Source: Thermoproteota archaeon (GTDB lineage: Archaea > Korarchaeota > Korarchaeia > Korarchaeales > Korarchaeaceae). Taken from it: a DNA stretch of 16,326 bases. Below, piece by piece: positions 977 to 15,693 of this stretch. Position 1 is the stretch's first letter. Every line of letters starts with the position of its first letter. Under the pieces are notes generated by a model that ran no database searches, was not told the DNA's origin, and worked only from the letters and a program-made list of their open reading frames with translations. The position numbers were made by a program, and so were the translations under genes. Location of the stretch: the NCBI GenBank assembly GCA_027491435.1, contig JAOZFG010000008.1:1-16326 (forward strand). The letters run 5' to 3'.

Positions 977-996
977 TAATGTATACATTATATAAA
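977..996 (-). promoter_or_regulatory. vapBC promoter: TATA box plus palindromic operator
   Basis: Minus-strand TTTATATAA at 988-996 lies 22-30 nt upstream of the vapB ATG (leaderless geometry). The perfect 14-bp palindrome TAATGTATACATTA at 977-990 overlaps it. Confidence 0.7.
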
Positions 997-1290
997 CATA
1001 TGGATAAGAGCCGTAACGATGAAGATAAGTGAAGTTATGAAGTACAGAGAAACTTTAAAGGGAGCAGAGAAGGGCCCCAAGAAGACTGGAGATGACCCTA
1101 ACAGAATTGGTGGGGCTACCTCTAAGTGTTGTCAGCTTAAGCACTTCCTCTCCACTCGTACCATAGCCTCAATTGACGGTGTCTGTAGGACTTCCAGGTT
1201 CAAACTCACGAGAAGAATAGAGGAATCCCAACTCAATTAAAGCCCTCAAGCTGAGGCACCATTGAACGAGAAGACGATTTACTGAAGATG

Positions 1291-1299
1291 AATAAAAAA
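1291..1299 (-). terminator. Oligo-T terminator of gdhA
   Basis: Minus strand reads TTTTTTATT, starting 5 nt after the gdhA stop codon; archaeal U-tract type. Confidence 0.55.
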
Positions 1300-1303
1300 G
1301 GGT

Positions 1304-2572
1304 TTAGGGCCAGATGCCCCTTATCTCCATGGCCTTCACTACACGCTCGACAGCCAGCACCAGAGCGGCAGTCCTCATGTCCACCTTCAGCTCATTGTGC
1401 TTGTTGTAGACGTCCCTGAAGGCCTTGGTCATCTTGGCCCTGAGCTTCTGTCTTACGGTGTCTATGTCCCACCACTCCCTGGTCCTGGCCTGGACCCACT
1501 CGAAGTAGCTGACGGTGACTCCACCGGCATTGGCGAGGATGTCGGGTATTATGAGCACTCCCTTCTCGTACAGTATCTGGTCAGCCTCAGGGGTGGTCGG
1601 CCCGTTGGCGGCCTCGGCTATCAGCTTGGCTCTAACGTTGTCTGCGTTCTCCTTGGTTATCACGTTCTCTATGGCGGCAGGTATCAGCACGTCCACGTCA
1701 AGCTCGAGCAGCTTCTTGTTGCCCTCAGCAGGGTCAGCAGCCAGCGGGGTGGAGCCGGGGAAGTCCTTGACGCTACCGGTCTTCTTCTTGTGTTCCAGGA
1801 CGGCGTCAGGATCTAGTCCGTCAGGGTTGTATATGGCTCCTCTGGTGTCGCTGACGGCCACTACCTTCATTCCAAGCTCGTGCATGAACTTGGCTGAGAA
1901 GTAGCCAGCGTTTCCGTATCCCTGCACTGCAGCAGTTGCGTTCTTGGGGTCTATGTTGAGTACCTTAAGGGCCTCCTCCACGGTGTACTGCAGACCCCTG
2001 GCGGTGGCCTCAACCCTCCCCTCGCTACCGCCAACCTCTAGGGGCTTACCAGTTATAACGCCGGGCTCAGGGTAGCCCTTTAACATGCTGTAGGTGTCCA
2101 TTATCCAGGCCATTTCCCTGGGGCTGGTGTACACGTCAGGGGCGGGTATATCTATGTTAACCCCTATTATGGGGCTTATCATGTAAGCGTACCTTCTAGT
2201 GAGCCTCTCCAATTCACCAAGGCTCAGCTTGTGGGGGTCAACCCTTATACCGCCCTTAGCGCCTCCGAAGGGTATGTCAACTACGGCAGTCTTCCAGGTC
2301 ATCCACATAGCCAGTGCCTTTACCTCATCAGCGTCAGTGTTGGGGTGATACCTGATACCTCCCTTGAAGGGACCCCTAGCGTCGTTGTGCTGGACCCTCC
2401 AACCGGTGAAAACCTTTATAGAACCATCGTCCATTCTAACGGGAATCTGTACCTCCAAAACCCTCTTCGGCTGGGCTAAAACAGCGTGTAAACCAGGGTC
2501 GAGGTTCATTACCTTGGCAGCCTTCTCAAGCTGCTTCAGAGCGACTTCCCAAGGGTTAAGATGCTGGGTCAT
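1304..2572 (-). CDS. gdhA: Glutamate dehydrogenase (NAD(P)+), Glu/Leu/Phe/Val dehydrogenase family
   Basis: Motifs GPFKGGIRYHP, MTWKTA, PFGGAKGG (catalytic Lys), DIPAPDV, GRVEATARG, QGYGNAG (Rossmann), EAANGPTT, PDILANAGGVTVSYFEW. SD GGAGGTG at 2580-2586. Confidence 0.97.
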   Translation of the reverse strand: MTQHLNPWEVALKQLEKAAKVMNLDPGLHAVLAQPKRVLEVQIPVRMDDGSIKVFTGWRVQHNDARGPFKGGIRYHPNTDADEVKALAMWMTWKTAVVDIPFGGAKGGIRVDPHKLSLGELERLTRRYAYMISPIIGVNIDIPAPDVYTSPREMAWIMDTYSMLKGYPEPGVITGKPLEVGGSEGRVEATARGLQYTVEEALKVLNIDPKNATAAVQGYGNAGYFSAKFMHELGMKVVAVSDTRGAIYNPDGLDPDAVLEHKKKTGSVKDFPGSTPLAADPAEGNKKLLELDVDVLIPAAIENVITKENADNVRAKLIAEAANGPTTPEADQILYEKGVLIIPDILANAGGVTVSYFEWVQARTREWWDIDTVRQKLRAKMTKAFRDVYNKHNELKVDMRTAALVLAVERVVKAMEIRGIWP

Positions 2573-2613
2573 AGGATAACACCTCCCTTAGGGGGCATCC
2601 TATATGAACGGGT

Positions 2614-2630
2614 ATAATTATTAAATATTA
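2614..2630. promoter_or_regulatory. Overlapping divergent TATA elements for gdhA and capC
   Basis: AT block ATAATTATTAAATATTA in a 77-bp intergenic gap. Plus-strand TTAAATA at 2621-2627 is 23-29 nt before ATG 2650; minus-strand TTTAATAA at 2618-2625 lies upstream of the gdhA SD. Confidence 0.55.
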
Positions 2631-2649
2631 AGGTCTTTAACTAACCCGG

Positions 2650-3117
2650 ATGAAGGGCGTCCCCATGACGTTAATGTATTTAACATTAACAGCGTTCAAC
2701 ACCCAGCAAGAGGTCACCGTTTACGCCGTAATACTCCTTGAGATGTTCCTAGCCTGGGGGTATTATGAACTAACGGGAAAGAGGGACTTCTCTCTGGCCT
2801 CACCGCTGCTGGCAGGCTACTTGGCAACTTACCCTGAGAGCTGGCCATGGGTTGTCGCCTCCTTCACCATCTCATTGCTTATTATCGAGCTCTTCTACTG
2901 GAGGTTTCTTTTCTACGGAATGAGATCCCTTTACCTGGCGATGACCGTGAGCTCCTTAATTATCTTGGTCCTTGTGGGTGCCTCTATAACTTCTTTGCTT
3001 ATGTCCACGCTCCCAGGGCTCCTAGCTTATGATGTGCACGCCTCAATGGATAGGAAGCGCACCTTAATGGCCTCCTGGGGGCTCATTTTAATAACCTGTT
3101 TCATAATGACCTGGTGA
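2650..3117 (+). CDS. capC: Poly-gamma-glutamate biosynthesis membrane protein CapC/PgsC-like
   Basis: 155 aa, very hydrophobic. LLAGYLA, FLFYGMR and LPGLLAYD parallel the PgsC motifs (V)PGYLA, LYGRR and PGLIAN. Directly precedes a CapB-like gene. Confidence 0.75.
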   Translation: MKGVPMTLMYLTLTAFNTQQEVTVYAVILLEMFLAWGYYELTGKRDFSLASPLLAGYLATYPESWPWVVASFTISLLIIELFYWRFLFYGMRSLYLAMTVSSLIILVLVGASITSLLMSTLPGLLAYDVHASMDRKRTLMASWGLILITCFIMTW

Positions 3118-3121
3118 GCCC

Positions 3122-4096
3122 TTGAGGATTGCCGTGATGGGGACTAGGGGCAAGACCAGCACCGCAATACTCCTTTACACGGAACTCAGGAGGAGAGGGT
3201 TCAGAGTAGTGTGCAAGGCCACAGGAGCCCTGCCTTTCCTTTGCCACGACGGCAGGTGTTTCAGAATAAAAAGGAGAGGGAGAACTAGGCTCTACGAGAA
3301 CCTGGAGGCGTTGAAGCTCGACGCTGACTTCTACATCATGGAGAACCATGGGACGAACCCGTACACAATGAGGGCCTTCAACCACTTCGTTAAGCCTGAT
3401 GTGGTCGTCCTTACCAACGCTAGGCTGGACCACACAGAACACATGGGTGAGAGTAAACGGACAATAGCTGAGAACATGGCGAAGGCCGTTGGTAAGGTGA
3501 AGCTGGTGGTCATGGGGGAGGACTTCCCGATACAGGGTGTTAAGGTCTTCCCCACTGAGATGCCCGGGTCGGAGGTTCCTAGGCTAGTGGACTTGCTGCT
3601 AAAAGAGTTGGGGCTGGGGGGAATTGACGTGTCCCTCTACGATAAAATGATATCAAGAGAGCTCAGGTATAGGGATGGGCCAGTCAGGTGGTTTGACGCC
3701 TCCAAGGTCAACGACCCTGAGAGCTTTTCCATGATAGTTAGCTGGCTCGATGAAAAGCCTAATCTGGCGATACAGCTAAGGAGGGACAGGCCCGGCCGTA
3801 CAAAGGTATTTCTCAACTACATAAGGGAGAACAGGGGGAGCTTCGGCAGAATAGCTGTTGCAGGGGCTTGGGCAAGCAGGTTCGCTGACTTGGTTGAGGG
3901 CAGGAGCTTCAGAGAGTCGAGCGAGGGGGCTAGGAGGGCCCTGTCCTGGTTAGAGGGGCCCGTGCTGACCGCTGTAAATAGAAGCGGCGAGTTTATGTCG
4001 TCCTTTCTCTCCCTGTTGGGGGCTCCCAACGGAATCCCGACGATATTCGGGACCTTCAAGCCTGAGAGGATATGCTCCGGGCTGATAAGGTCCTGA
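3122..4096 (+). CDS. capB: Poly-gamma-glutamate synthase CapB/PgsB-like (Mur/FolC ligase family)
   Basis: P-loop GTRGKTS, KATG, MENHGTNPYT, TNARLDHTEHMG, VNDPES and LRRDRPGRT match CapB-type motifs. TTG start, with SD GGTGA overlapping the capC stop. Confidence 0.8.
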   Translation: MRIAVMGTRGKTSTAILLYTELRRRGFRVVCKATGALPFLCHDGRCFRIKRRGRTRLYENLEALKLDADFYIMENHGTNPYTMRAFNHFVKPDVVVLTNARLDHTEHMGESKRTIAENMAKAVGKVKLVVMGEDFPIQGVKVFPTEMPGSEVPRLVDLLLKELGLGGIDVSLYDKMISRELRYRDGPVRWFDASKVNDPESFSMIVSWLDEKPNLAIQLRRDRPGRTKVFLNYIRENRGSFGRIAVAGAWASRFADLVEGRSFRESSEGARRALSWLEGPVLTAVNRSGEFMSSFLSLLGAPNGIPTIFGTFKPERICSGLIRS

Positions 4097-4172
4097 CAGC
4101 CTTCCTGTACGGACACCCTCGGGCTCCCATTAATTTTTTAGAAAGTCGGGTACTGAAGTGAAGGTGCAATAA

Positions 4173-5246
4173 ATGAGCTACAAGATGGTGGGGGCCTTTC
4201 TCATTATAGGAGCCCTCGCCATCGCCTTTGCCGTTGGAGGAAGGCTGTCCAATGTTAAGGTCTTGGGATCAGGCTCCTCTTTCATTTACCCGCAGATGTC
4301 CGTCTGGATAAAGGAGCTCAAGGGGAAGGCGCCCTGGATAACCCTCAACTACAACCCCGTAGGCAGCGGCACAGGGCAACAACAGTTTCTCTCAGGACTG
4401 GTTGACTTCGCCGCCAGCGATCCACCGTTGAACGAGGAGAAGTGGTCTCAGCTCAGGGGAAAGGTTATTCAGATGCCCATAGTCTTAGGGGCCGTGGCCG
4501 TCGTCTACAACGTGCCTGAGGTTGATGAGCTCCGCCTGGATGGCAGGGCCTTGGCCCTGATCTACTCCGGGGAGGTGAAGTACTGGGACGATCCAGTTAT
4601 TTTGGAACTCAATCCTGGGGTCAGGTTTCCCCATAAGCCCATAGTGGCGGTTCACAGGTCTGACTCAAGCGGCACCACCAACGTCTTCACATACTTCCTG
4701 TACAAAGCCGCTCCAGACGTTTGGCCAGCTGAGAGGGTAGGCAAGACGGTGGATTGGCCGGTTGATGGCTTGGGCAACGGTGTTGGGAGCAAGGGGAACC
4801 AGGGGGTAGCTCAGACCCTAGCTAGCACCCCCTACTCCCTGGGCTACGTCGAGCTCTCCTACGCGATCCAGGAGGGCATGAAAGTAGCCCTAATAAAGAA
4901 CGCTGACGGCAAGTTCGTGAAGCCCACGGTGAAGGGGATAATGCAAGCTGCCAAGGAGGCCTTCAAAAACATGCCTAAGAGCCCCCTAGATGACTTCAGC
5001 CGTGACATGGACGCCCTCATACTGGCGCCCGGAGAGGAGTCGTACCCCATAACCTCCTTCGTCCACCTGATCTTCAGGACGGAGTACAGCGAGGAGAAGG
5101 TCAAGGCTATAAGGCTCTTAATAGAGTTCTTCAACACCGAGGGACAGGAGATGATAGTTGAAGGCTACGCGCCCATCCCGGTAGAGCTCAGGAAGACTAA
5201 CCTCAAGGCCCTGGAGTTCCTGAGGGTGTCTTCCCATGAAGGCTAA
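4173..5246 (+). CDS. pstS: Phosphate ABC transporter substrate-binding protein
   Basis: N-terminal hydrophobic anchor; motifs GSGSSFIYP, YNPVGSGTG, DFAASD, HRSDSSGTT, GSKGNQGV, GYVE, YPITSF. Confidence 0.96.
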   Translation: MSYKMVGAFLIIGALAIAFAVGGRLSNVKVLGSGSSFIYPQMSVWIKELKGKAPWITLNYNPVGSGTGQQQFLSGLVDFAASDPPLNEEKWSQLRGKVIQMPIVLGAVAVVYNVPEVDELRLDGRALALIYSGEVKYWDDPVILELNPGVRFPHKPIVAVHRSDSSGTTNVFTYFLYKAAPDVWPAERVGKTVDWPVDGLGNGVGSKGNQGVAQTLASTPYSLGYVELSYAIQEGMKVALIKNADGKFVKPTVKGIMQAAKEAFKNMPKSPLDDFSRDMDALILAPGEESYPITSFVHLIFRTEYSEEKVKAIRLLIEFFNTEGQEMIVEGYAPIPVELRKTNLKALEFLRVSSHEG

Positions 5247-6165
5247 GCACGATAAGCTCTTCTACCTCTCCCTGCTCCCCTTCGCCTCGGTAATCTTCGT
5301 CATATTCGCCCTGCTGACCTTCGTCCTGGTCAGCGAGTCCTGGCCAGCCGTTCAGAGGTGGGGCCTATCCCTCTTCACCGAGAACGTCTGGAAGCCCTCT
5401 GAGGTTAGCGTTGAGCAGGCCAGGTACGGACTGCTCGCCCCCATGTATGGCACCTTGTTAACCTCTGTCTTAGCCGCTGCAATAGCCTTGCCGCTTTCTA
5501 TCTCCACAGTGTACTTCATAGAGGAACTAGCGCCCAGAAGGGTTAGGGACTTCTTCTCTTCGGTGATAGATCTCATGGCCGGGCTTCCCACGATAATTTA
5601 CGGGCTCTGGGGGTTAGAGGTGCTGGTTCCCTTCCTAAGAGACTCATTAATGTACCCGCTGAGGCACTCCCTTCCCTTTCTGCCCCTTTTCTCCTGCGAT
5701 CCCACGGCAGGAACTTCCCTTTTGGCCGCTGGAGTCCTACTCTCCATAATGATAATTCCCTACATGCACGGGGTCATTAAGGAAGCCTACAGCTCGATAC
5801 CTTACACCTACAAGGAGGCAGCCCTCTCCCTGGGGACCACCAGGTATGAGTACTTCAAAATAATGTTGGGGCTCATCAGGCCGGCGGTCTTAGCAGCCCT
5901 CCTCCTGGGCCTTGGGAGGGCCGCCAGCGAGACGGTTGCCGTTGCCCTGGTGGTCGGAAACGCCTTCAACGTCTCACCCTGCCTGTTCGCTCCGGGCTAC
6001 ACCATATCTTCCCTCATAGCCAACCAGTTCTCCGAGGCCTCCTTCTACCCACTTATGGAGAACGTGATGTTCGCTGGGAGCCTAGTCCTCTTAGTCATAG
6101 GGGTGCTGTTCAGCGGCCTGGGGGTTGTGATGATGAGGAGGGTGAGGGAACTCTATGGACGCTAG
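5236..6165 (+). CDS. pstC: Phosphate ABC transporter permease
   Basis: Motifs YGTLLTS, AGLPTIIYGLWG, EAA loop KEAALSLGTT, GRAASETVAV, IANQFSEA. Overlaps pstS by 11 nt. Confidence 0.95.
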   Translation: MKAKHDKLFYLSLLPFASVIFVIFALLTFVLVSESWPAVQRWGLSLFTENVWKPSEVSVEQARYGLLAPMYGTLLTSVLAAAIALPLSISTVYFIEELAPRRVRDFFSSVIDLMAGLPTIIYGLWGLEVLVPFLRDSLMYPLRHSLPFLPLFSCDPTAGTSLLAAGVLLSIMIIPYMHGVIKEAYSSIPYTYKEAALSLGTTRYEYFKIMLGLIRPAVLAALLLGLGRAASETVAVALVVGNAFNVSPCLFAPGYTISSLIANQFSEASFYPLMENVMFAGSLVLLVIGVLFSGLGVVMMRRVRELYGR

Positions 6166-6994
6166 GTACCTTAAGGAGAGGGCCTTCCTGATAATCACCG
6201 TGGCCCTAGCGGTCATAGCAGTATTCCCGGTTTTCCATGTCCTCTTCACCATCCTGGTTAGGGGAGGACAAACCCTCCTCAAGGCTGGCCCTTCCTTCCT
6301 GCTGGACGTCCCACCTCCTCCCGGGAAGGGGCTAGGAGGGATAGCTCCATCTCTGGCTGGAACGCTCATGCTGGCCTTCTACTCCTCCATAGCAGGAATA
6401 CCCCTATCCTTCTTCGCTGCAATCCTAGCAGTGGAATTTCCCAGGAGCCTAATAGCTAAGGGCGTCAGGGTCCTGAGCAAAGCCCTCCTCGAGATCCCTT
6501 CAGTAGTCGTGGGAATGCTTGTCTACGCCATAATGGTGGTCCCCATGGGGCAGTTCTCCATATTAGCTGGCGCGGTGGCTCTGGCCATAATGATGATCCC
6601 CTACGTCACCACCTACGTTGAGGAGGCCCTCGAGTCAGTTCCCTTTACCTACAGGGAGGCCGGCTTCAGCGTCGGGATGCTTAGGTCTCAGGTGGTATTC
6701 AAGGTGGTGGTGGGGATAGCTAAGAGAGGCATACTTACTGGGATGCTCATAGGCATAGCCAAGGTGCTGGGGGAGACGGCGCCCCTGCTATTCACCCTCG
6801 GGAGGGACAGGTACAGCGTTCCCACCAACGTATTCGAGTACGGGGACTCCATATCCCTTCTAATATTCGACTACGTCCAGACGCCCTACGCCAACATGCA
6901 CGAGGTGGCCTGGGGGGCTGCCCTAGTGTTGACCCTAATGTTTCTGGCCCTCTTCACCCTGGTGAAGAGGTACGCTGGGGAGGTGAGGCTTTGA
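6155..6994 (+). CDS. pstA: Phosphate ABC transporter permease
   Basis: Motifs GGIAPSLAGT, IPSVVVG, EEALESVP...REAGFSVG, GETAPLLFT, AWGAALVL. Overlaps pstC by 11 nt. Confidence 0.95.
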   Translation: MDARYLKERAFLIITVALAVIAVFPVFHVLFTILVRGGQTLLKAGPSFLLDVPPPPGKGLGGIAPSLAGTLMLAFYSSIAGIPLSFFAAILAVEFPRSLIAKGVRVLSKALLEIPSVVVGMLVYAIMVVPMGQFSILAGAVALAIMMIPYVTTYVEEALESVPFTYREAGFSVGMLRSQVVFKVVVGIAKRGILTGMLIGIAKVLGETAPLLFTLGRDRYSVPTNVFEYGDSISLLIFDYVQTPYANMHEVAWGAALVLTLMFLALFTLVKRYAGEVRL

Positions 6995-7752
6995 AGGAGT
7001 TCGCCTTGGAGGTTAAGGACCTAAATGTGTGGATAAGGGACAAGCACATAATAAAGGGGGTGTCCGTTCAGATTCCCAGGGCCAAGATATTAGCTGTGAT
7101 GGGTCCCAGCGGCTCAGGCAAGTCCACCATGCTTAGAGCCATAAACAGGCTCATAGAGCTCATTCCCGACGCTAGGGTGGAGGGCAGAGTTGAGGTCTAC
7201 GGGAGGGACGTGTACGCCGAGGACCCTTACAAGATAAGGAGGATAATGGGGACCGTCTTCCAAACGCCTAACCCGTTCCCCCACATGTCCATATACGAGA
7301 ACGTGGCCATAGGTCCCAAGATAAACCGGCTGGTTAAGAGCAAACGTGAGCTTGATGAGCTGGTTAGGTGGGCCCTGGAAAAGGCGATGCTCTGGGACGA
7401 GGTGAAGGACAGGCTCCACGACCCCCCTCACAGGCTGAGCGGAGGTCAGCAACAGAGGCTATGCCTGGCCAGGGCCTTGGCCCTCAAGCCGAAGCTCCTG
7501 CTTCTGGATGAGCCTACCGGCAACGTGGACCCAGTTAACGCCGTGAAGATAGAGGAGGCCCTTAAAGGCCTAGTGAAGGAGCTGGGCCTCACTATAGTTC
7601 TGGTGACTCACACCCCGCAGCAGGCGGTCAGGATCTCAGATTACATAGCCTTCCTCTACATGGGGAAGCTCGTGGAATTCGGGCTCACTGACAGGATAGC
7701 TTTGAACCCGAGCCACGAGCTGACGGTCAAGTTCCTGAGGGGCGAGGTATAG
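6991..7752 (+). CDS. pstB: Phosphate ABC transporter ATP-binding protein
   Basis: Walker A GPSGSGKST, VFQTPNPFPHMSIYENVA, signature LSGGQQQRL, LLLDEPT, VTH. The TTG start overlaps the pstA stop (TTGA), with SD GGAGGTGA upstream. Confidence 0.96.
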   Translation: MKEFALEVKDLNVWIRDKHIIKGVSVQIPRAKILAVMGPSGSGKSTMLRAINRLIELIPDARVEGRVEVYGRDVYAEDPYKIRRIMGTVFQTPNPFPHMSIYENVAIGPKINRLVKSKRELDELVRWALEKAMLWDEVKDRLHDPPHRLSGGQQQRLCLARALALKPKLLLLDEPTGNVDPVNAVKIEEALKGLVKELGLTIVLVTHTPQQAVRISDYIAFLYMGKLVEFGLTDRIALNPSHELTVKFLRGEV

Positions 7753-7760
7753 TCAACCCC

Positions 7761-7804
7761 ATTTTACCATAACTTTTATATTATTGGTTAACCAAATTTT
7801 ACCA
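7761..7804 (+). promoter_or_regulatory. Promoter/operator of the AAA ATPase gene
   Basis: TTTTATATTA at 7774-7783, perfect palindrome TTGGTTAACCAA at 7784-7795, and direct repeat ATTTTACCA at 7761-7769 and 7796-7804, directly before ATG 7805. Confidence 0.6.
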
Positions 7805-8998
7805 ATGTGGCTGGACGAGCTCAGTTACAGGATGAGGCTTAGGGCTGAGAGGGCCTCCAGGTACAGGAAGAGGTTCTTCCTGAAGGAGCTCCCTAAGGGC
7901 AGGGTGGTCCTCCTTCCTGGTATAAGGGGCGTGGGGAAGAGCGTCGCCTTACTTCAACTCTTCTTTGAGGTAGGAGGTTACCTATTCTGGGTTGACGAGC
8001 TCTCTCTGTTTTACGGGATGGGCCTGACTGACCTCTTAAGGGAGATAGAGAGGAGGGAAGGCGAGCCAATTGAGAGACTCAACGTCACGATAATGTTGGA
8101 CGAGGTGCATTACGACAGCAAATGGGCCCTGGCCCTCAAGTGGCTGGCTGACGCCTTCCAAGGAAGGGTCATAGCCACGGGCTCATCGGCCCTTGCCTTT
8201 CAGATGACTCCTGAGCTGGGCAGGAGAGCCAAGGTCAGCTGGGTCTGGCCCCTCTCCTTTTACGAGTGGCTCTACCTTAGGGGAGAGGATGTGAGACCAG
8301 TTAGGCTGGAGGACCTATTCTTCAAGGATGTCCAGCCGGAGTACAGGCCTGGCTTCGAGAGGTTCCTCAAGGAGGGAGGCCTCCCCGTAACCTTGGAGTT
8401 CGGGATAGACTCTGTCCTTAGGTCTGTGGAGAGGGCGATCTTCGGCGACATGCTAGTGGTTGGAGGCTTCGACAGGAAGACGGTCTCTTTAACCCCTCAG
8501 CTCCTTAGGAGGCTGGCCCTCAACCCATCTATAAGCGTGGAGAGGTTGGCTTCAGAGGTAGGTCTGTCCAAACCCACTGTCGTGTCGGTGCTCGACTACC
8601 TGGAGAAGGCCGGGCTCATAATACAGCTCAGGCCCTACGGGCCGCTCTCCTCCCTAAGGAAGGGGTTGAAGAGGTACTTCGTGACTCCGACCATAAGGTA
8701 CGCTTTAACTGCCCCCAGCTACGACCTCGGAACTCTCCTGGAGGAGTACGTTGCCTCCCAACTCTACCTGATGGCCCTGAGGAACGGCTGGGACCTCACC
8801 TTCTGGCCTAAGGATGGGCCGGACTTCGTGCTTACAATGGGCGGTAAAAGGGTAGCCATTGAGGTGGGGTTCGGGAAGAAAGGTTACTCCCAGGTGGTTA
8901 AGGCCCTAGGGAAAGTCGACGAGGTGGTGGTGATATCTGAGGAGGGGCCCAAGGGGGTTAAGTGGATACCCTTGCAGGCCTTCTACCGTGCCTGGTAA
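7805..8998 (+). CDS. AAA+ ATPase (AAA_14/DUF4143-type) with winged helix and C-terminal restriction-endonuclease-like domain
   Basis: Walker A GIRGVGKS, Walker B IMLDEVH, ATGSS, wHTH SVERLASEVGLSKPTVVSVLDYLEKAGLI, C-terminal LEEYV...PDF...IEVG. ATG 7805 is preferred over the track's TTG 7784 because the TATA box ends at 7783. Confidence 0.85.
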   Translation: MWLDELSYRMRLRAERASRYRKRFFLKELPKGRVVLLPGIRGVGKSVALLQLFFEVGGYLFWVDELSLFYGMGLTDLLREIERREGEPIERLNVTIMLDEVHYDSKWALALKWLADAFQGRVIATGSSALAFQMTPELGRRAKVSWVWPLSFYEWLYLRGEDVRPVRLEDLFFKDVQPEYRPGFERFLKEGGLPVTLEFGIDSVLRSVERAIFGDMLVVGGFDRKTVSLTPQLLRRLALNPSISVERLASEVGLSKPTVVSVLDYLEKAGLIIQLRPYGPLSSLRKGLKRYFVTPTIRYALTAPSYDLGTLLEEYVASQLYLMALRNGWDLTFWPKDGPDFVLTMGGKRVAIEVGFGKKGYSQVVKALGKVDEVVVISEEGPKGVKWIPLQAFYRAW

Positions 8999-9034
8999 GG
9001 TTTAAACTAATTGGTGTGGGACTTCCGGGTCAAC

Positions 9035-10816
9035 ATGCTGGGGTATGGTAGAGTTACCTTCGTGGACCTCACCTCAGGCAAGGTTAGGGAGGAGAACCTG
9101 AGCGACGAGTTGGCCCTCTCCTTCATAGGCGGGAAGGGGTTGGGACTCTACTACCTTTACAGGATGACCGACAGGTACACCGACCCCCTGGGGCCAGCTA
9201 ACCCCCTGATACTGGCCATCGGGCCCTTCACTGGCACTTCTGTACCCTACTCCGGGAAGGCAGCCTTCATCTTCAAGTCTCCCCAAACGGGAATACTGGG
9301 CGAATCAGTTGTAGGAGGCACTCTAGGAGCTTTCATGAGGTGGGCTGGACTCACTGCCCTCATCATCACCGGGAGGTCCAGCTCCCCCGTCTACCTTTAC
9401 GTCGACGAGTCAGGGGTTGAGATAAAAGACGCTAGCCACCTCTGGGGTAAGGGGATATACGAGACGGAGGAAAGCCTGAAGAAGGAGCACGGGAAGGTGA
9501 GCGTGGCCAGCATAGGGCCGGCTGGAGAAAACCTGGTTAAGTTCGCCGCTATAGGGAATGAGAAGTGGAGGCAGGCCGGGAGGACCGGGGCTGGAGCAGT
9601 AATGGGGTCTAAGAAGCTGAAAGCCATTGTAGTGGGGGCCTCTGGGATAAATTGGGATGCTCACGACCCCGAGGGGGTGAGGGAGTTCACCTCCAGCGAG
9701 ATAATTCCCAGGGCAAGGGAGGCCATGGCCTCCTACTTCAAGTCCGGGACCACAGCTTTAACCTCTCTTGCCAACGAGATGGGTTTCTTCCCAAGCTATT
9801 ACTGGAGTAAAGGCTCCGTGGATGGTTGGGAGAGGATAGCCTGGGAATCCCTGGAGAAGGAGGTGTTCGTACACCCCAAGGGGTGCTTCGGATGCCCAAC
9901 CCCTTGCGGGAGGTACAGCAGGAGTAAGAGGGGAGGGGAGGTGGAGATAGAGTACGAGACGGTCTACTCCCTGGGAGGGCTGGCGGCCATCACAGATCCC
10001 CACGCTTTGGTCTGGCTGAACGACCTGATAGACGACCTGGGCATGGACTCCATAACCACGGGCAACGTTCTGGCCTTTGCTATAGAGGCTAAGAGGAGGG
10101 GCCTCCTGGATACGGAGTTAAAGCTAGAGTACGGCGACCCGGAGCCCCTGTACGAGCTGGTGAAGATGATAGCTTTCAGGCAAGGCATTGGAGACCTTCT
10201 GGCTGAAGGAGTTGCCGGAGCTTCCAGGGCTCTAGGGGCTGAGGATCTGGCAGTCCACGTTAAGGGCCTTGAGCCAGCTGGTTACGATCCCAGGACCCTG
10301 AAGAGCATGTCCCTGAGCTACGGGGTCAGCTCAAGGGGGGCCTGCCACCTGAGGCTTATGGGCTACTTCGCCGACATAAAGGGTTTGGGAGGGGATAGAA
10401 ACGCCGTAACCAGGGAGAAAGTGGAGGCAGTTGCTGATTTGGAGGAGAAGGGCGTTCTAGAGGACTCCCTGCTGCTCTGCAAGTTTACCAGGACCCTGAT
10501 ATCCTGGCCGGAGATGGTCAAGTACTTCAGGCTGATAACTGGGGTTAACTTGAGCGAGCTGCAGCTTAAGGAAGCCGCTAGAAGGATAATAACGCTGTCC
10601 AGGATGTACAACGTCAGAATGGGGATTTCCAGGAAGGATGACAGGCTGCCGAAGAGGCTACTGAGGGAGTCCTTCCGGCACAAGGGGGAGGTCAGGAGGA
10701 TCACGGAAGAGGAGATGGAGAAGTTCCTGGACATGTATTACGATCTCAGGGGCTGGGATGAGAACGGGGTTCCTAAAAGGGAGGTTGTGGAGAGGTACCT
10801 CCCCGGCCTAGCTTGA
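9035..10816 (+). CDS. aor: Tungsten-containing aldehyde:ferredoxin oxidoreductase family protein
   Basis: Motifs FIGGKGLG, KSPQTG, SIGPAGENLV, AGRTGAGAVMGSKKLKAI, the 4Fe-4S motif CFGCPTPC plus RGACH, EYET, DDLGMDSI, YYDLRGWDENGVP. Start is probably ATG 9035 (TTTAAA at 9001-9006); the track start is TTG 9011. Substrate subfamily cannot be determined. Confidence 0.92.
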   Translation: MLGYGRVTFVDLTSGKVREENLSDELALSFIGGKGLGLYYLYRMTDRYTDPLGPANPLILAIGPFTGTSVPYSGKAAFIFKSPQTGILGESVVGGTLGAFMRWAGLTALIITGRSSSPVYLYVDESGVEIKDASHLWGKGIYETEESLKKEHGKVSVASIGPAGENLVKFAAIGNEKWRQAGRTGAGAVMGSKKLKAIVVGASGINWDAHDPEGVREFTSSEIIPRAREAMASYFKSGTTALTSLANEMGFFPSYYWSKGSVDGWERIAWESLEKEVFVHPKGCFGCPTPCGRYSRSKRGGEVEIEYETVYSLGGLAAITDPHALVWLNDLIDDLGMDSITTGNVLAFAIEAKRRGLLDTELKLEYGDPEPLYELVKMIAFRQGIGDLLAEGVAGASRALGAEDLAVHVKGLEPAGYDPRTLKSMSLSYGVSSRGACHLRLMGYFADIKGLGGDRNAVTREKVEAVADLEEKGVLEDSLLLCKFTRTLISWPEMVKYFRLITGVNLSELQLKEAARRIITLSRMYNVRMGISRKDDRLPKRLLRESFRHKGEVRRITEEEMEKFLDMYYDLRGWDENGVPKREVVERYLPGLA

Positions 10817-12334
10817 CCTCTTCATTATTTTGTTTACTGCGTCCTCGAAGGCGTTTAAAGAGGCCTCCAATATATCCTCGCTTATCCCTGAAGCCTCAAC
10901 CTCTCCCTTAGGGCCTAAAACCCTGACCAAAACCTCTCCTAAAGCTTCAGTCCCTGATGAGATGGCCCTGAGCCTGAACCTCCTCAGTTTAAAGCCCGGA
11001 ACTCCCTCTATCTCCCTTAAAGCGTTAGCTAAAGCGTCTACCGGTCCCACGCCCACTGAAGCCGATCTCACCTCCTTCCCATTGACCTTGGCCCTCACGT
11101 GGGCCAGCGGAGTTATCCCGGAGCCCGTGACGACGGTCCACTCCTGAACCTCGAAGGGCTTCTCCAGTTTGGCTCCCAACACCTCTTCCACCGCCTTCAT
11201 GAAGACGCTTTCAGTTATCCTGACCCCCTGATCGGCCAAGGCCTTTATCCTTATGAGTATGGCCTCTATCTCCTCGTCCTTGGCCTCAATTCCCATGTCT
11301 TTAAGGACCTGCTGGACGGTGGACTTGCCCGAGAGCTTGCCCACCACTATCCTCCTCCTTTTACCCACCTTCTCAGGAGGTATCGGCTCGTAAGTCGAGG
11401 GGTCGGCCATCAAACCGTGGACGTGGACCCCAGCCTCGTAGGTGTAAACTAAGGGGCCGACCACGGGCATTATCTCGTAGAGGGTTATGCCGCTCAACCT
11501 TTCCACTAGCTCTGACACCTCCGAGAGCATTTGGGTCTGGACGTTGGTCTCAACCTTCAGGATCTCGTGGAGGGCCATCACCACCTGCTCCAGGGGAGCT
11601 ATCCCAGCCTTTGGACCTAAACCATTCACCGAGACGTGGACGTTCTCGGCTCCAGCTTCCACGGCGGCTATGGTGTTGGCGGTCGCCATTCCGAAGTCGT
11701 TGTGGAAGGTGACCCCTAAAGGCTTAGAGACGACCCTCTTGGCCTCTATAACCATCTTCTTAGCTCCTGTAGGGGTCAACAGGCCCAGGCTATCGGTCAG
11801 GTTTATGTAATCGGCGCCAGCCTCTTCAGCGGCCTTGAGGATCTCCCAGAGGTACTCGACGTCGGCCCTGCTAACGTCCTCCGCTATGAACTCCACCTTA
11901 GCCCCTCCCGATTTTGCTAACTCTATTGACTGGACTACTGACTCCTTGACCTCCTCCCTGGTCTTCCTAAGCCTCTTCTCAATGTTTATGTCTGAGACCG
12001 GGGCGAATATGCTCACGTAATCGGTCTCGGTTTGTAGGGCTATCTCCACGTCGTCCTTCCTGGCCCTGGCCATACAGCTTATCTCCGAGGAGAAGCCGGC
12101 CCTAGATATCCTCCTGACGGCCTTAACAACTTCTTCGACCGCTCTCTTCTCCCCCTCAGAGGTCGCTGGAAAGCCGGCCTCTATGACGTCGACGCCCAGG
12201 GCGTCAAGGGATTCGGCTATCTCCACCTTAGCTTGTGCGGTGAATGAAACCCCCGGGACCTGTTCGCCCAGGGTCAGGGTGGAGTCGAATATCCTCACCC
12301 TGGAGGGGAGCATCGAGGGGAACTCGTTGAACAT
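10808..12334 (-). CDS. 2-isopropylmalate/citramalate synthase (LeuA/CimA) family protein with degenerate active site
   Basis: Full DRE-TIM barrel (IFDSTL..GEQ, IEAGFP, AED, HNDFGMATAN), linker (GKLSGK) and C-terminal allosteric domain (GVGPVDA, GTEALGEV, DILEASLNAF). Strong SD GGTGAT. Catalytic residues are altered (see findings). Converges on aor with a 9-nt overlap. Confidence 0.9.
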   Translation of the reverse strand: MFNEFPSMLPSRVRIFDSTLTLGEQVPGVSFTAQAKVEIAESLDALGVDVIEAGFPATSEGEKRAVEEVVKAVRRISRAGFSSEISCMARARKDDVEIALQTETDYVSIFAPVSDINIEKRLRKTREEVKESVVQSIELAKSGGAKVEFIAEDVSRADVEYLWEILKAAEEAGADYINLTDSLGLLTPTGAKKMVIEAKRVVSKPLGVTFHNDFGMATANTIAAVEAGAENVHVSVNGLGPKAGIAPLEQVVMALHEILKVETNVQTQMLSEVSELVERLSGITLYEIMPVVGPLVYTYEAGVHVHGLMADPSTYEPIPPEKVGKRRRIVVGKLSGKSTVQQVLKDMGIEAKDEEIEAILIRIKALADQGVRITESVFMKAVEEVLGAKLEKPFEVQEWTVVTGSGITPLAHVRAKVNGKEVRSASVGVGPVDALANALREIEGVPGFKLRRFRLRAISSGTEALGEVLVRVLGPKGEVEASGISEDILEASLNAFEDAVNKIMKRSS

Positions 12335-12673
12335 GGTATCACCTTCTCAGGTAAATGGAGGCGCCTTCATTATAACGATTCCCAGCTCTCTCTACTTAGC
12401 TGTCCGCAACGCGAGAAGGGGGCTCCAAAAAGCTTTTTTCTCATAGGAGCAGGCCAGCGCCTCTTACTCGAGGACAGACCTCTAAATGAACGGGTCCATA
12501 TAGTCATGAGCCGTTCTCGGACGTGAAGGTATTATTTAATCCTCTGGCCTGACAGAGGGCCCCACTACCACCTCTTAGGATATGAAACTGATGGCGGCTA
12601 TTCCTAAATCAAAGAAATTGACCGGGTGACCGAAATTTTTTCTTAAACTGGTTCCCCGAACTAAGGTGATAAC

Positions 12674-13630: not shown

Positions 13631-14542
13631 TTACAGGAGCTTCCCCAGGGACTTGTCCCTCACAGCCCAAAGGGTGAGGACGGCCGACCCAACGAAAGCT
13701 GCGGCCAGGGGCGAGAATACGATCAGGTCCACTCTAAAGGTTATGAATGATAGGAAGGCCACAAGAGAGGAGGTCACAACCTCCTGTAGGAGCACCGTGC
13801 TCCAGCTCACTCCCTGGGATATCAAGAGCCCCACCTGTTTAAGGTCCCTGCTGACCTCAAGCCACCTTATGATGGCAACCCCCAGGGCAGACATGGCCAG
13901 TGAAATCGTGAAAATTGTATCAACCACCCCCTTTCGCTTAACCATTCCCTTGATGAGGTCCTCTGATGGGCCCAGGTAAATTAGAGTGCCGCTCGTCAAG
14001 CCGCTCAACTTCTTCAGAACCTCTCTCGATCCCTTGACCTTGATCTCCAACACGTGCTCAACGTGCCTTACTCCTGAGATCGGGAAGCCGGTAATTAGAT
14101 CTCCCTTCGGTAGGGCCCATCCTTGGAAGGCCCCCACCACCCTGCACCTGAAACTTGATAGGTTCAGCCAGGAGTTCAGGGATAAGTTAAACCTCTCAAG
14201 CAGGTCAGAGCTGGCCAAGCACTCCCCGCTCCTGGGGATCTTATCCACGGGCAACAAGGGTTCAGGCACCTCCTTAACGTAGATCGCCGTGATGTTGTCT
14301 GTTAGCACGAAGGTCAGCTCATGTACCGCTTTCACGCCGGGGATCCTCCTGATTAGGTCCTCCCGCATCCCAGGTATCACAGCGTAACCAGTTAGACTCT
14401 CGGTCAAGTTATGGATCGAGTCAGCTAAGCGATCACTGGACTCCTTTATGGAGGCGTTAGTGAAGAGAAGGGAGGTTAGCACTATAAAAAGAGCCAGCCT
14501 TCTCCTCCAGGAAGCTCCAATCAAGTAACTCAGGCTGCTCAC
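13631..14542 (-). CDS. FtsX/MacB-like ABC transporter permease
   Basis: N-terminal RRR plus TM helix, an extracytoplasmic core (PRSGECLAS...RVVGAF), C-terminal TMs and VGLLISQG resembling the FtsX 'EIGILKALG' motif. GTG 14542 (preceded by GAGGG) is preferred over 14689, which would overlap the neighbour by 124 nt. Confidence 0.65.
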   Translation of the reverse strand: MSSLSYLIGASWRRRLALFIVLTSLLFTNASIKESSDRLADSIHNLTESLTGYAVIPGMREDLIRRIPGVKAVHELTFVLTDNITAIYVKEVPEPLLPVDKIPRSGECLASSDLLERFNLSLNSWLNLSSFRCRVVGAFQGWALPKGDLITGFPISGVRHVEHVLEIKVKGSREVLKKLSGLTSGTLIYLGPSEDLIKGMVKRKGVVDTIFTISLAMSALGVAIIRWLEVSRDLKQVGLLISQGVSWSTVLLQEVVTSSLVAFLSFITFRVDLIVFSPLAAAFVGSAVLTLWAVRDKSLGKLL

Positions 14543-14565
14543 CCCTCGAAGGGTTTCTTGTCCCG

Positions 14566-15693
14566 TTAGAGGAGCTCCCATAAGGCCCTCCTGCCGAAAA
14601 GCCTTATCATAAGGGCTTGAAACGCGAAGCTCAGGCCTATAATTCCGAGCAAAGCTAACAGCCCCTGAGGGGAGAGCCCCTGCCTCCACATGTACACCAG
14701 GGAGGCCTTATATTCGGTCAGCAACTCGGACAGAAATGGACCAAGGTTTCCTAGGAAGGCACCTAGGATAATCCCGAGTAACTGAGAACTCATCATCAGG
14801 GCCATTACATGTGAAACGTCCGGGGGTCTACCCTGGGACGTTAGGATGGCCAGGTACCTTTTAGCTGAGGCGTAAGCCAAGTAGTTAGCTGATAAAGTCA
14901 TAATTACGCCTATGGCCAAGGAGCCCATCGTTATAATGGAGAATTTGTATTTAAGGTCCTCGTAGATCTTCCTGGCCTTGTCATACCTTAAGGCGAAGAC
15001 CTTAACGGGAGGTACCTTCGCGATTGAGCGCAGCCCCTCATAATCCTTTGAGAACATTATGACGAATAATTGAACGTTTAGCTTGATCGAGGAAGGGTCC
15101 AAGCTAGCCCTCTTGATGACCTCGACGAAATGGGTCTGGTCGGTTATTAGTGAGCCCATGAACTCTATTCCGAATTCGCGGGGCGCATAAGTTCCTACAA
15201 CTTTGCAGGAGTAGTTCAGTTCGGTGTAGTTTAGGGACTTACTCGTCACGAATAAGACGTTGACGCTAACGCTCTGAGGGAGTGAAATGGATAAATTTCT
15301 AAAGAGGAATTCCGTGATTAAACACTCTCCAGCTTTCTCCGGGTATCTGCCCCTTACCAGTTGGTGTTTGGCTATTTCAGGAACTTGGGAGAAGTTAATT
15401 AGCTTTAATCTTAGAGAGACGCTGTCAATTCTGGCTGCTCCGATAAGCTCCTCCCTCAGGTAATAGGTGATGTTCAACTCCCGCAATTTCCGCTCGAGCT
15501 GAGCCCAACTCTGTCCAGAGATGCTCTCTTCAACGTAATAGTAATTCTTGAGATCTTCAAGTCTTTTTAACTCATGATCCACGGCCGATAGCGAGGATGT
15601 GGTTTGAGCCAACAGGAGGGCTGTAATTAGGAAGATGAGCAGGTTTGACAACAGGTAGCTGCATTCCAGTGAAAACCAGAGCCTCAGGCCCAC
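14566..15693 (-). CDS. FtsX/MacB-like ABC transporter permease
   Basis: One N-terminal TM, a large extracytoplasmic region with LVRGRYPEKAGECLITE...KVVGTY (MacB periplasmic core pattern), three C-terminal TMs and LAILTSQG. GTG start with GGGTGG upstream. Confidence 0.7.
   Translation of the reverse strand: MGLRLWFSLECSYLLSNLLIFLITALLLAQTTSSLSAVDHELKRLEDLKNYYYVEESISGQSWAQLERKLRELNITYYLREELIGAARIDSVSLRLKLINFSQVPEIAKHQLVRGRYPEKAGECLITEFLFRNLSISLPQSVSVNVLFVTSKSLNYTELNYSCKVVGTYAPREFGIEFMGSLITDQTHFVEVIKRASLDPSSIKLNVQLFVIMFSKDYEGLRSIAKVPPVKVFALRYDKARKIYEDLKYKFSIITMGSLAIGVIMTLSANYLAYASAKRYLAILTSQGRPPDVSHVMALMMSSQLLGIILGAFLGNLGPFLSELLTEYKASLVYMWRQGLSPQGLLALLGIIGLSFAFQALMIRLFGRRALWELL

Follow-up and report, generated by a model that had tools for sequence, protein, structure and literature searches.

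What does a homolog of 2-isopropylmalate synthase (LeuA) do once the residues that carry out its chemistry have been replaced? The question is raised by a stretch of 16,326 nt (the window) from a Thermoproteota archaeon of the Korarchaeaceae (GCA_027491435.1, contig JAOZFG010000008.1; genome G000), whose reverse strand encodes a full-length LeuA paralog, P0001, that differs from the enzymes of its family at the essential arginine and at most of the metal site. The evidence presented here somewhat favors, at a little better than even, a pseudoenzyme that is maintained by selection: a LeuA-type dimer that would be non-catalytic and would act by small-molecule binding and/or by scaffolding toward a partner. 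Positions are given in window numbering and residues in P0001 numbering unless another structure is named.

Catalytic Residues Lost and Kept

The gene, called here the dead leuA, comprises the following features.

10808..12334, reverse strand: coding sequence of the dead LeuA paralog P0001 (508 codons plus stop, ATG start, uninterrupted open reading frame)
11504..12301, reverse strand: HMGL-like (DRE-TIM) barrel, residues 12-277, metal site gone (Pfam PF00682, 241.7 bits)
11225..11464, reverse strand: HCS_D2 linker subdomain, residues 291-370, H304 and Y315 present (Pfam PF22617, 81.4 bits)
10823..11218, reverse strand: LeuA_dimer allosteric/dimerization domain, residues 373-504, including GVGPVDA 428-434 (Pfam PF08502, 105.5 bits)
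12269..12274, reverse strand: T21-L22 codons (in DSTLTLGEQ), opposite the essential Arg and the metal-binding Asp (R89/D90 of 6E1J)
11783..11797, reverse strand: TDSLG, residues 180-184, opposite PDTVG; S182 is at the 2-oxoacid-binding Thr position (T257 of 6E1J)
11702..11710, reverse strand: T209-F210-H211 (in TFHND), opposite the metal-binding HxH
11600..11617, reverse strand: GPKAGI, residues 240-245, opposite GERAGN
12338..12344, reverse strand: Shine-Dalgarno-like AGGTGAT, 3 nt upstream of the ATG, read directly
12370..12375, reverse strand: TATA-like TTATAA, candidate promoter, 41 nt upstream of the ATG

The uninterrupted frame of 508 amino acids (aa) with its ATG start was correctly described in the original prediction (a reading of the letters and open reading frames only), as were all of the motifs quoted there (DSTLTLGEQ, TFHND, GPKAGI, TDSLG and GVGPVDA). 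The Shine-Dalgarno site claimed upstream of the gene corresponds to AGGTGAT, which we take to be complementary to the archaeal 16S 3′ end. The barrel, linker and regulatory domain that were said to be kept are each found by Pfam, so that P0001 has the complete LeuA layout. It also passes the NCBIfam subfamily model NF002085 (533 bits against a cut-off of 517) and falls far below the cut-off of every NCBIfam LeuA, CimA and homocitrate-synthase equivalog model, among them NF002086 (408 versus 532), TIGR00973 (358 versus 599) and NF041069 (370 versus 600). Neither Rfam, applied to the window at gathering thresholds, nor a tRNA scan gave a match.

P0001 was aligned to the solved homologs 6KTQ, 6E1J and 3RMJ, and its motifs fall opposite their LRDGEQ/LREGEQ, HxHND, GERxG[NI] and (P/A)DTVG. 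The nearest solved structure is the homocitrate synthase of Sulfolobus acidocaldarius (6KTQ, E = 5.6e-81), which differs from P0001 in that LREGEQ, HAHND and GERVG are intact. The methylthioalkylmalate synthase of Brassica (6E1J) aligns to residues 5-377 (E = 1.8e-66), and its chain numbering in the alignment is that of the study which describes the roles of its residues (PMC11532901). There, an essential divalent metal is reported to be bound by Asp90, His288 and His290 and the 2-oxoacid to be held by Arg89 and Thr257; the R89A, R89K and R89Q proteins are each inactive, and the likely general base is His388, stacked on Tyr399, itself held by Glu227. In the same account the arginine is called invariant and essential among DRE-TIM metallolyases, and the metal site is counted as central to the superfamily (PMC11532901), in agreement with the catalytic arginine, metal-binding aspartate and two metal-binding histidines named in the original prediction. 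The equivalent positions are given below (6E1J residue and role, then P0001 residue).

R89, binds 2-oxoacid, essential: T21
D90, metal ligand: L22
Q93, bridges 2-oxoacid and coenzyme A (CoA): Q25
T257, binds 2-oxoacid: S182
H288, metal ligand: T209
H290, metal ligand: H211
E227, supports Tyr: E152
H388, general base: H304
Y399, stacks on His: Y315

By this alignment P0001 has neither the essential arginine nor two of the three protein metal ligands; D90, H288, H290 and R89 are replaced in the dead clade described below, although at the H290 position most clade members, but not P0001 itself (H211), have lost the histidine. The equivalents of E227, H388 and Y399 are kept, and the resulting His-Tyr-Glu triad (H304, Y315 and E152) is invariant in 19/19 clade members. 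The statement that the catalytic machinery had been removed is thus right for the Arg, the Asp and the first His and goes too far for these three residues. Similarly, GERAGN does read GPKAGI as described, but Ile at the Asn position also occurs in 6KTQ and in 10 of 149 family representatives whose motifs are otherwise intact, so that this replacement alone is not a sign of loss. Taken at the level of aligned residues, P0001 would be unable to run the metal-dependent Claisen condensation of its family.

A Family Confined to One Genus

The best 120 relatives found by a word-indexed search give, together with the query, an alignment of 121 protein clusters. The degenerate pattern is common to 19 of them (P0001-P0019, 56-95% identical), whereas R-D is present in 100 of the 102 other relatives (the other two being gapped there) and HxH in all 102. 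This pattern of replacements, seen in 19/19 clade members against the other 102 relatives, is far beyond chance. Close relatives had been singled out in the original prediction as the place where a strain-specific lesion or an assembly error would come to light; the relatives 95% and 86% identical to P0001, and those down to 56%, do not keep RD/HxH and carry the degenerate pattern. The residues at the altered positions are distributed among the 19 clade members as follows.

Position 21: T 12, S 7
Position 22: L 12, Q 7
Position 182: S 8, P 8, T 3
Position 209: T 13, A 6
Position 211: S 7, F 5, H 4, Y 3
Position 245: I/L/M/V

Fixed across the clade are GPKAG (including P241 and K242), YTYEAG and F210, and a 7-residue insertion at positions 64-70 is clade-specific. 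A profile of the 19 sequences, compared with 1.84 billion representatives at 50% identity, retrieved one at 937 bits, with 441 bits for the second best, and this drop indicates that the clade is a single narrow family. The source organisms of its members are named 'Candidatus Korarchaeum' or 'Korarchaeota' and the products '2-isopropylmalate synthase', 'alpha-isopropylmalate synthase regulatory domain-containing protein' or 'Pyruvate carboxyltransferase'. In a survey of 43 whole genomes of the phylum (match threshold of at least 55% identity), a dead-type match was found in 18/20 other genomes of the window's genus, the two misses being 70% and 83% complete, and in no other genus among the 43 genomes searched. 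The [TS][LQ] replacement was read in 17/17 ortholog loci with a readable N-terminus. The dead clade is accordingly described here as a pseudoenzyme branch of the LeuA family, confined to one genus.

Altered Arg and/or metal residues are also found in independent LeuA-like representatives (P0196, P0176, P0201, P0205 and P0261). The four tested (P0196, P0176, P0205 and P0261) keep all three Pfam domains and have the same layout as the dead clade, from which they differ by other replacements, other lineages and scores of at most 441 bits against the clade profile. P0196 (a 21-member cluster, source-named Alphaproteobacteria 2-isopropylmalate synthase) reads TLFAGDHA, VDCPND and GARAGH, and P0176 reads TLCDGEQ and IRAYND. 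With several independent altered proteins of this kind retaining the regulatory domain, reuse of the LeuA scaffold as a ligand-binding module may recur.

Origin by Duplication and Selection

The dead clade forms one group with support of 100 in two trees (monophyly at 100/100). Its sister is the genus's own intact LeuA (P0020-P0027, at 47-49% identity to P0001; the intact paralogs P0020-P0031, about 48% identical, are source-named Korarchaeum sp. 2-isopropylmalate synthase), and the two are grouped against all other sampled archaeal relatives, with a Shimodaira–Hasegawa-like approximate likelihood ratio (SH-aLRT) of 99 in the quick tree and ultrafast bootstrap/SH-aLRT values of 100/99 in the careful tree. 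Stem length is greater for the dead than for the intact clade (0.93 versus 0.36 under LG+C20, quick tree; 0.49 versus 0.32 under LG+G4, careful tree), which suggests a duplication followed by a burst of change. On this phylogenetic evidence, the dead clade is a lineage-specific duplicate of the genus's intact leuA. The intact protein resembles P0001 in its three-domain layout, its position as sister clade and its passing of NF002085. In the dead copy, by contrast, Arg, Asp and the first of the two His are gone, and in most members so is the second; it carries GPKAG[ILMV] and the 64-70 insertion, has no leuACDB operon and scores below the equivalog cut-offs.

The ratio of nonsynonymous to synonymous substitution rates (dN/dS) was estimated by the NG86 method for genome pairs with unsaturated dS and at least 89% amino-acid identity. 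In the close pairs it is 0.025-0.078 for the dead paralog and 0.028-0.084 for the intact paralog of the same genome pairs, and the YN00 medians are 0.054 and 0.029 respectively (8 usable pairs each). At deeper divergence, the dN of the dead paralog is about 1.8 times that of the intact one (about 0.31 versus 0.17); the dead paralog hence evolves somewhat faster overall, yet is clearly maintained. It is now under purifying selection about as strong as that acting on the active paralog. A ratio near 1, named in the original prediction as a sign of decay, is far from these values (0.025-0.08, equal to the intact paralog), and its proposal of a maintained non-catalytic role rather than decay is borne out by the clade-wide pattern and the low dN/dS.

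The missing catalytic residues could also be read as decay into a pseudogene, as a lesion of one strain or as a fault of assembly. Against such an origin, the frame is intact, the barrel is confidently modeled (see below), the same pattern recurs in 19 clusters and 17/17 loci, and dN/dS is about 0.025-0.08. Decay or artefact is rejected on the clade-wide pattern, the 17/17 loci and the low dN/dS, and is given practically no credence here.

Persistence Without an Intact LeuA

HMGL-like genes number only two in genome G000 (1.64 Mb, 43 contigs, 99.46% complete): the dead leuA and the gene of a 421-aa protein on contig C40. In the relatives, the intact copy heads a leuA-leuC-leuD-leuB operon beside the CDC48 gene and the dead copy is always elsewhere. 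In G000, the site downstream of CDC48 holds other genes and lies inside a contig, and an ortholog of the intact LeuA operon was not found by tblastn. Matches to KARI_C and ILVD_EDD_N are absent from G000; both are found, as is intact LeuA, in three 99%-complete relatives. The root-to-tip path of the G000 dead LeuA is among the shortest in the clade in both trees. Since three branched-chain synthesis loci are missing and a short-branched dead paralog is kept, its function would require neither an active LeuA nor leucine synthesis, and an obligate partnership with an active LeuA in G000 is unlikely. G000 looks like a branched-chain amino-acid auxotroph in an otherwise prototrophic genus.

These losses bear on another explanation, in which P0001 would be a regulatory or 'half-site' subunit: in a heterodimer with intact LeuA, its lid (H304 and Y315), acting in trans, and its regulatory domain would tune leucine feedback. 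The two proteins are sister paralogs, no clade member departs from H304 or Y315 in the lid, and dead-type and intact-type genes occur together in 17/20 other genomes of the genus (dead 18/20, intact 19/20). However, co-occurrence in one genus reflects shared ancestry and is not independent evidence, the dead and intact genes are never adjacent, and G000 keeps its short-branched dead paralog without a detectable intact LeuA, its leuCDB, ketol-acid reductoisomerase (KARI) or dihydroxy-acid dehydratase (DHAD). The pairing with an active paralog that had been put forward in the original prediction is therefore weakened for G000, where intact LeuA was not found, and a subunit role of this type is considered unlikely.

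The 421-aa synthase on C40 has TLRDGQQ, HGHND and GERAGN intact and no regulatory domain. Its best NCBIfam match is the NifV-type homocitrate synthase (187 bits versus a cut-off of 463), and its gene lies in the following operon.

L070 (G000:C40) 977-4996: C40 synthase operon, with the HMGL-like synthase, homoaconitase/IPM (isopropylmalate)-isomerase large and small subunits, and a gene of the IPM/homoisocitrate-dehydrogenase family

Orthologs with 63-73% identity are found in 18/20 of the genus's other genomes, and a single genome from a different genus also has the synthase; since shared ancestry in one genus confounds its co-distribution with the dead LeuA, that pattern was not used as evidence.

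Retained Fold and Shifted Constraint

An AlphaFold2 (AF2) model of the single chain, built from the 19-sequence alignment, has a mean pLDDT (predicted local distance difference test) of 74.8; most barrel blocks reach 85-97, the lowest being 66, and confidence is low for residues 283-329, overlapping the linker. In the dimer of isopropylmalate synthase, the linker is described as packing against the other chain (PMC9860122), and the low values at 283-329 may be an effect of single-chain modeling. The leading Foldseek matches are homocitrate synthase, methylthioalkylmalate synthase and LeuA structures, namely 6KTQ (the top match, 38% identity), 6E1J and the Mycobacterium tuberculosis LeuA entries, and the modeled barrel superposes on that of 3EWB with a root-mean-square deviation of 1.5 Å over 281 columns. 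The model and the Foldseek matches confirm that the LeuA-type fold is retained.

The domains were compared for mean pairwise identity in the 13 genomes holding both paralogs and for dN/dS in 14 close pairs.

Barrel: identity, dead 0.72, intact 0.85; dN/dS, dead 0.053, intact 0.042
Linker: identity, dead 0.72, intact 0.82; dN/dS, dead 0.061, intact 0.040
Regulatory domain: identity, dead 0.72, intact 0.75; dN/dS, dead 0.036, intact 0.049

Of the positions conserved at 90% or more in the 102 other relatives, the dead clade keeps 52/94 in the barrel, 14/31 in the linker and 18/25 in the regulatory domain. The latter, which makes up 27% of the length, also holds 10 of the 19 residues that are invariant in the clade and variable elsewhere (binomial p = 0.015), including W399, R451, E478 and E497. 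Constraint has shifted away from catalysis, and the regulatory domain is the most constrained part and holds most of the new invariants. The domain differences in dN/dS, though small, agree in direction. Such a pattern is consistent with the amino-acid sensor put forward in the original prediction, a role that the regulatory domain would provide.

The barrel, too, is still under strong constraint, its newly fixed residues are P241, K242, F210, Y299 and L295, and it may have a specific function, be it ligand binding, an interface or new chemistry. The last of these, which the original prediction had listed as altered chemistry, would make P0001 a new enzyme, its barrel rebuilt for metal-independent chemistry or for acyl-CoA binding and turnover around Glu152-Tyr315-His304 together with Lys242, Tyr299 and Phe210. 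The invariance of the triad in 19/19 members, the clade-wide fixation of the switched residues and a barrel dN/dS of 0.053, near the 0.042 of the active paralog, speak for such a rebuilding. Yet the arginine is presented as invariant and essential, and the metal site as central, in the DRE-TIM metallolyases (PMC11532901), and the gene has no metabolic gene context. Moreover, the replacements of the metal ligands and of the arginine are not themselves fixed (T/S, L/Q, T/A, S/F/H/Y and I/L/M/V), unlike what a new catalytic center would show; the former substrate and metal positions vary within the clade, which fits relaxed constraint there and not a rebuilt catalytic center. New catalysis is held to be distinctly unlikely.

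Proposed Mode of Action and Known Systems

The pseudoenzyme reading can be put as a sequence of steps. leuA was duplicated in the ancestor of one archaeal genus, and the duplicate, after a burst of change, lost the divalent-metal site and the essential Arg while keeping the TIM-barrel fold, the lid-to-barrel contacts E152/Y315/H304 and the C-terminal LeuA_dimer domain. P0001 most likely forms a LeuA-type dimer and would act without catalysis. The most plausible ligand would be a branched-chain amino acid, bound by the regulatory domain; the remodeled barrel might in addition take up a CoA ester or a 2-oxoacid, and the ligand signal would be passed to a partner protein. The role would be independent of leucine biosynthesis, as G000 appears to have lost the pathway and kept the gene.

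Several points weigh against this scheme. The absence of activity, like dimerization, ligand binding and signaling, is a matter of inference, and no partner protein was found for the dead LeuA. The differences in dN/dS between domains are small, and the barrel value of 0.053, the invariant triad and the fixed P241/K242/F210/Y299 would equally fit new catalysis or a specific barrel ligand. The ligand contacts of the regulatory domain could not be mapped, the alignment to the regulatory domain of 3F6G being weak (E = 0.011). Finally, G000 is a draft in 43 contigs, and the case for missing genes draws on three loci, each independent of the others, plus one syntenic site.

Much is on record about pseudoenzymes in eukaryotic signaling, and little about those in archaeal metabolism. 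HisZ, a catalytically dead paralog of histidyl-tRNA synthetase, offers an analog that works in a comparable manner. It is described as non-catalytic and as conferring amino-acid allosteric control on ATP phosphoribosyltransferase (PMC9734150). By analogy, the mode of the dead LeuA most likely resembles that of HisZ serving ATP phosphoribosyltransferase, with the differences that HisZ has an unrelated fold and a known partner, whereas the obvious partner LeuA is absent from G000. In a literature search of titles and abstracts, with most subscription journals outside its scope, no dead member of the LeuA, homocitrate synthase or citramalate synthase families was found described. The dead clade offers a clean natural case in which a dated, lineage-specific duplication, wholesale loss of the metal site, selection of enzyme strength and survival after pathway loss come together. 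It also has a practical consequence, since a metabolic reconstruction of Korarchaeota that trusts the source name '2-isopropylmalate synthase' can show the leucine pathway as filled when it is not.

Gene Neighborhood and NurA-HerA

In the window, the neighbors of the dead leuA give no leucine (leuACDB) context. One of them is the following gene.

9011-10816, forward strand: aldehyde:ferredoxin oxidoreductase (AOR) gene, convergent with the dead leuA, the 3′ ends overlapping by 9 nt

The other is divergent and encodes a 288-aa protein with a sub-threshold AP_endonuc_2 match. In the relatives, by contrast with G000, the dead leuA directly follows genes for NurA and HerA on the same strand, in 9/9 genome loci and in 7/7 metagenome loci whose upstream DNA is available, two or more of the latter being repeats of genome loci (among metagenome contigs, the single-protein search found 0 relatives and the alignment-based search 8 loci). 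The gap between HerA and the dead leuA measures 21 nt in three loci, 45 and 46 nt in two more and 558 nt in a sixth; the other three have no reliable starts. The pair consists of a NurA of about 353 aa and an intein-containing HerA of about 830 aa, with a winged helix-turn-helix (wHTH) gene divergent upstream, and a convergent Ldh_2 gene lies immediately downstream of the dead leuA in 5/9 genome loci and one gene away in 2/9. The 288-aa window neighbor was considered as a homolog of this wHTH neighbor and ruled out (BLASTP E = 9.7). Genome G025 has two dead-LeuA copies (loci L004 and L027), 69% and 66% identical to P0001 and each behind its own NurA-HerA; it is listed at 7% contamination, and the two copies may represent a mixture of two strains and not a duplication.

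The module is also present in G000, in the first of the two loci below.

L069 (G000:C17) 4128-8676 and L033 3609-8189: second NurA-HerA pair with divergent wHTH gene

This second pair is distinct from the canonical NurA-HerA-Mre11-Rad50 operon (L068), and the intein of its HerA is recognized by Pfam Intein_splicing and by PADLOC homing-endonuclease models. PADLOC matches, weak to moderate, were obtained for NurA ('type III coevolved', 1.2e-5), HerA (1.4e-24) and the wHTH protein (to Csa3, 2.7e-4), and the dead LeuA had no PADLOC match. In G000 the wHTH-NurA-HerA genes are on C17 and the dead leuA on C30, unlinked.

In 17/17 other orthologs, a TATA-like hexamer begins 26-29 nt ahead of the ATG, where it overlaps or closely follows the HerA stop. 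Such a distance would be expected if an archaeal gene with a promoter of its own were transcribed without a leader, and the hexamer suggests that the dead leuA has such a promoter; G000 instead has TTATAA at -41 and the Shine-Dalgarno-like site. Both the own-promoter signal and the unlinking in G000 weaken a functional link to NurA-HerA.

Such a link would make the dead LeuA an accessory of the second NurA-HerA module, a metabolite sensor that couples amino-acid or acyl-CoA status to DNA end processing or defense. The conserved same-strand synteny (9/9 genome and 7/7 metagenome loci), the fact that the pair is additional to the canonical NurA-HerA-Mre11-Rad50 operon, the weakly Csa3-like wHTH neighbor and the PADLOC matches of NurA and HerA are compatible with this role. 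There is also a precedent in the same enzyme family, in that the catalytically dead yeast homocitrate synthase Lys20-E155A is reported still to suppress DNA-damage sensitivity (PMC4330366). The likeness lies in a non-catalytic function of a dead mutant and in the dead LeuA adjoining NurA-HerA in most relatives; Lys20 differs in being an active enzyme that uses a fungal C-terminal segment, and the archaeal counterpart would rest on synteny that is absent in G000. The evidence is synteny within one genus, the genes are unlinked in G000 (C17 versus C30), the TATA-like hexamer in 17/17 other orthologs suggests a promoter of its own, and the dead LeuA itself has no PADLOC match, so that an accessory role is rated very unlikely. 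If true, archaea would have a counterpart to the part that Lys20 plays, independently of catalysis, at double-strand breaks.

Other Features of the Window

Two open reading frames of 352 and 375 aa (13631-14689 and 14566-15693, both on the reverse strand) overlap by 124 nt and have no Pfam match. The forward strand at 2650-4096 holds an unassigned pair, made up of a 155-aa protein that Pfam does not match and, after it, a 324-aa protein whose only match is weak (Mur_ligase_M, 28.5 bits); the two lie upstream of a PstS-like/permease/ABC ATPase transporter cluster (4173-7752).

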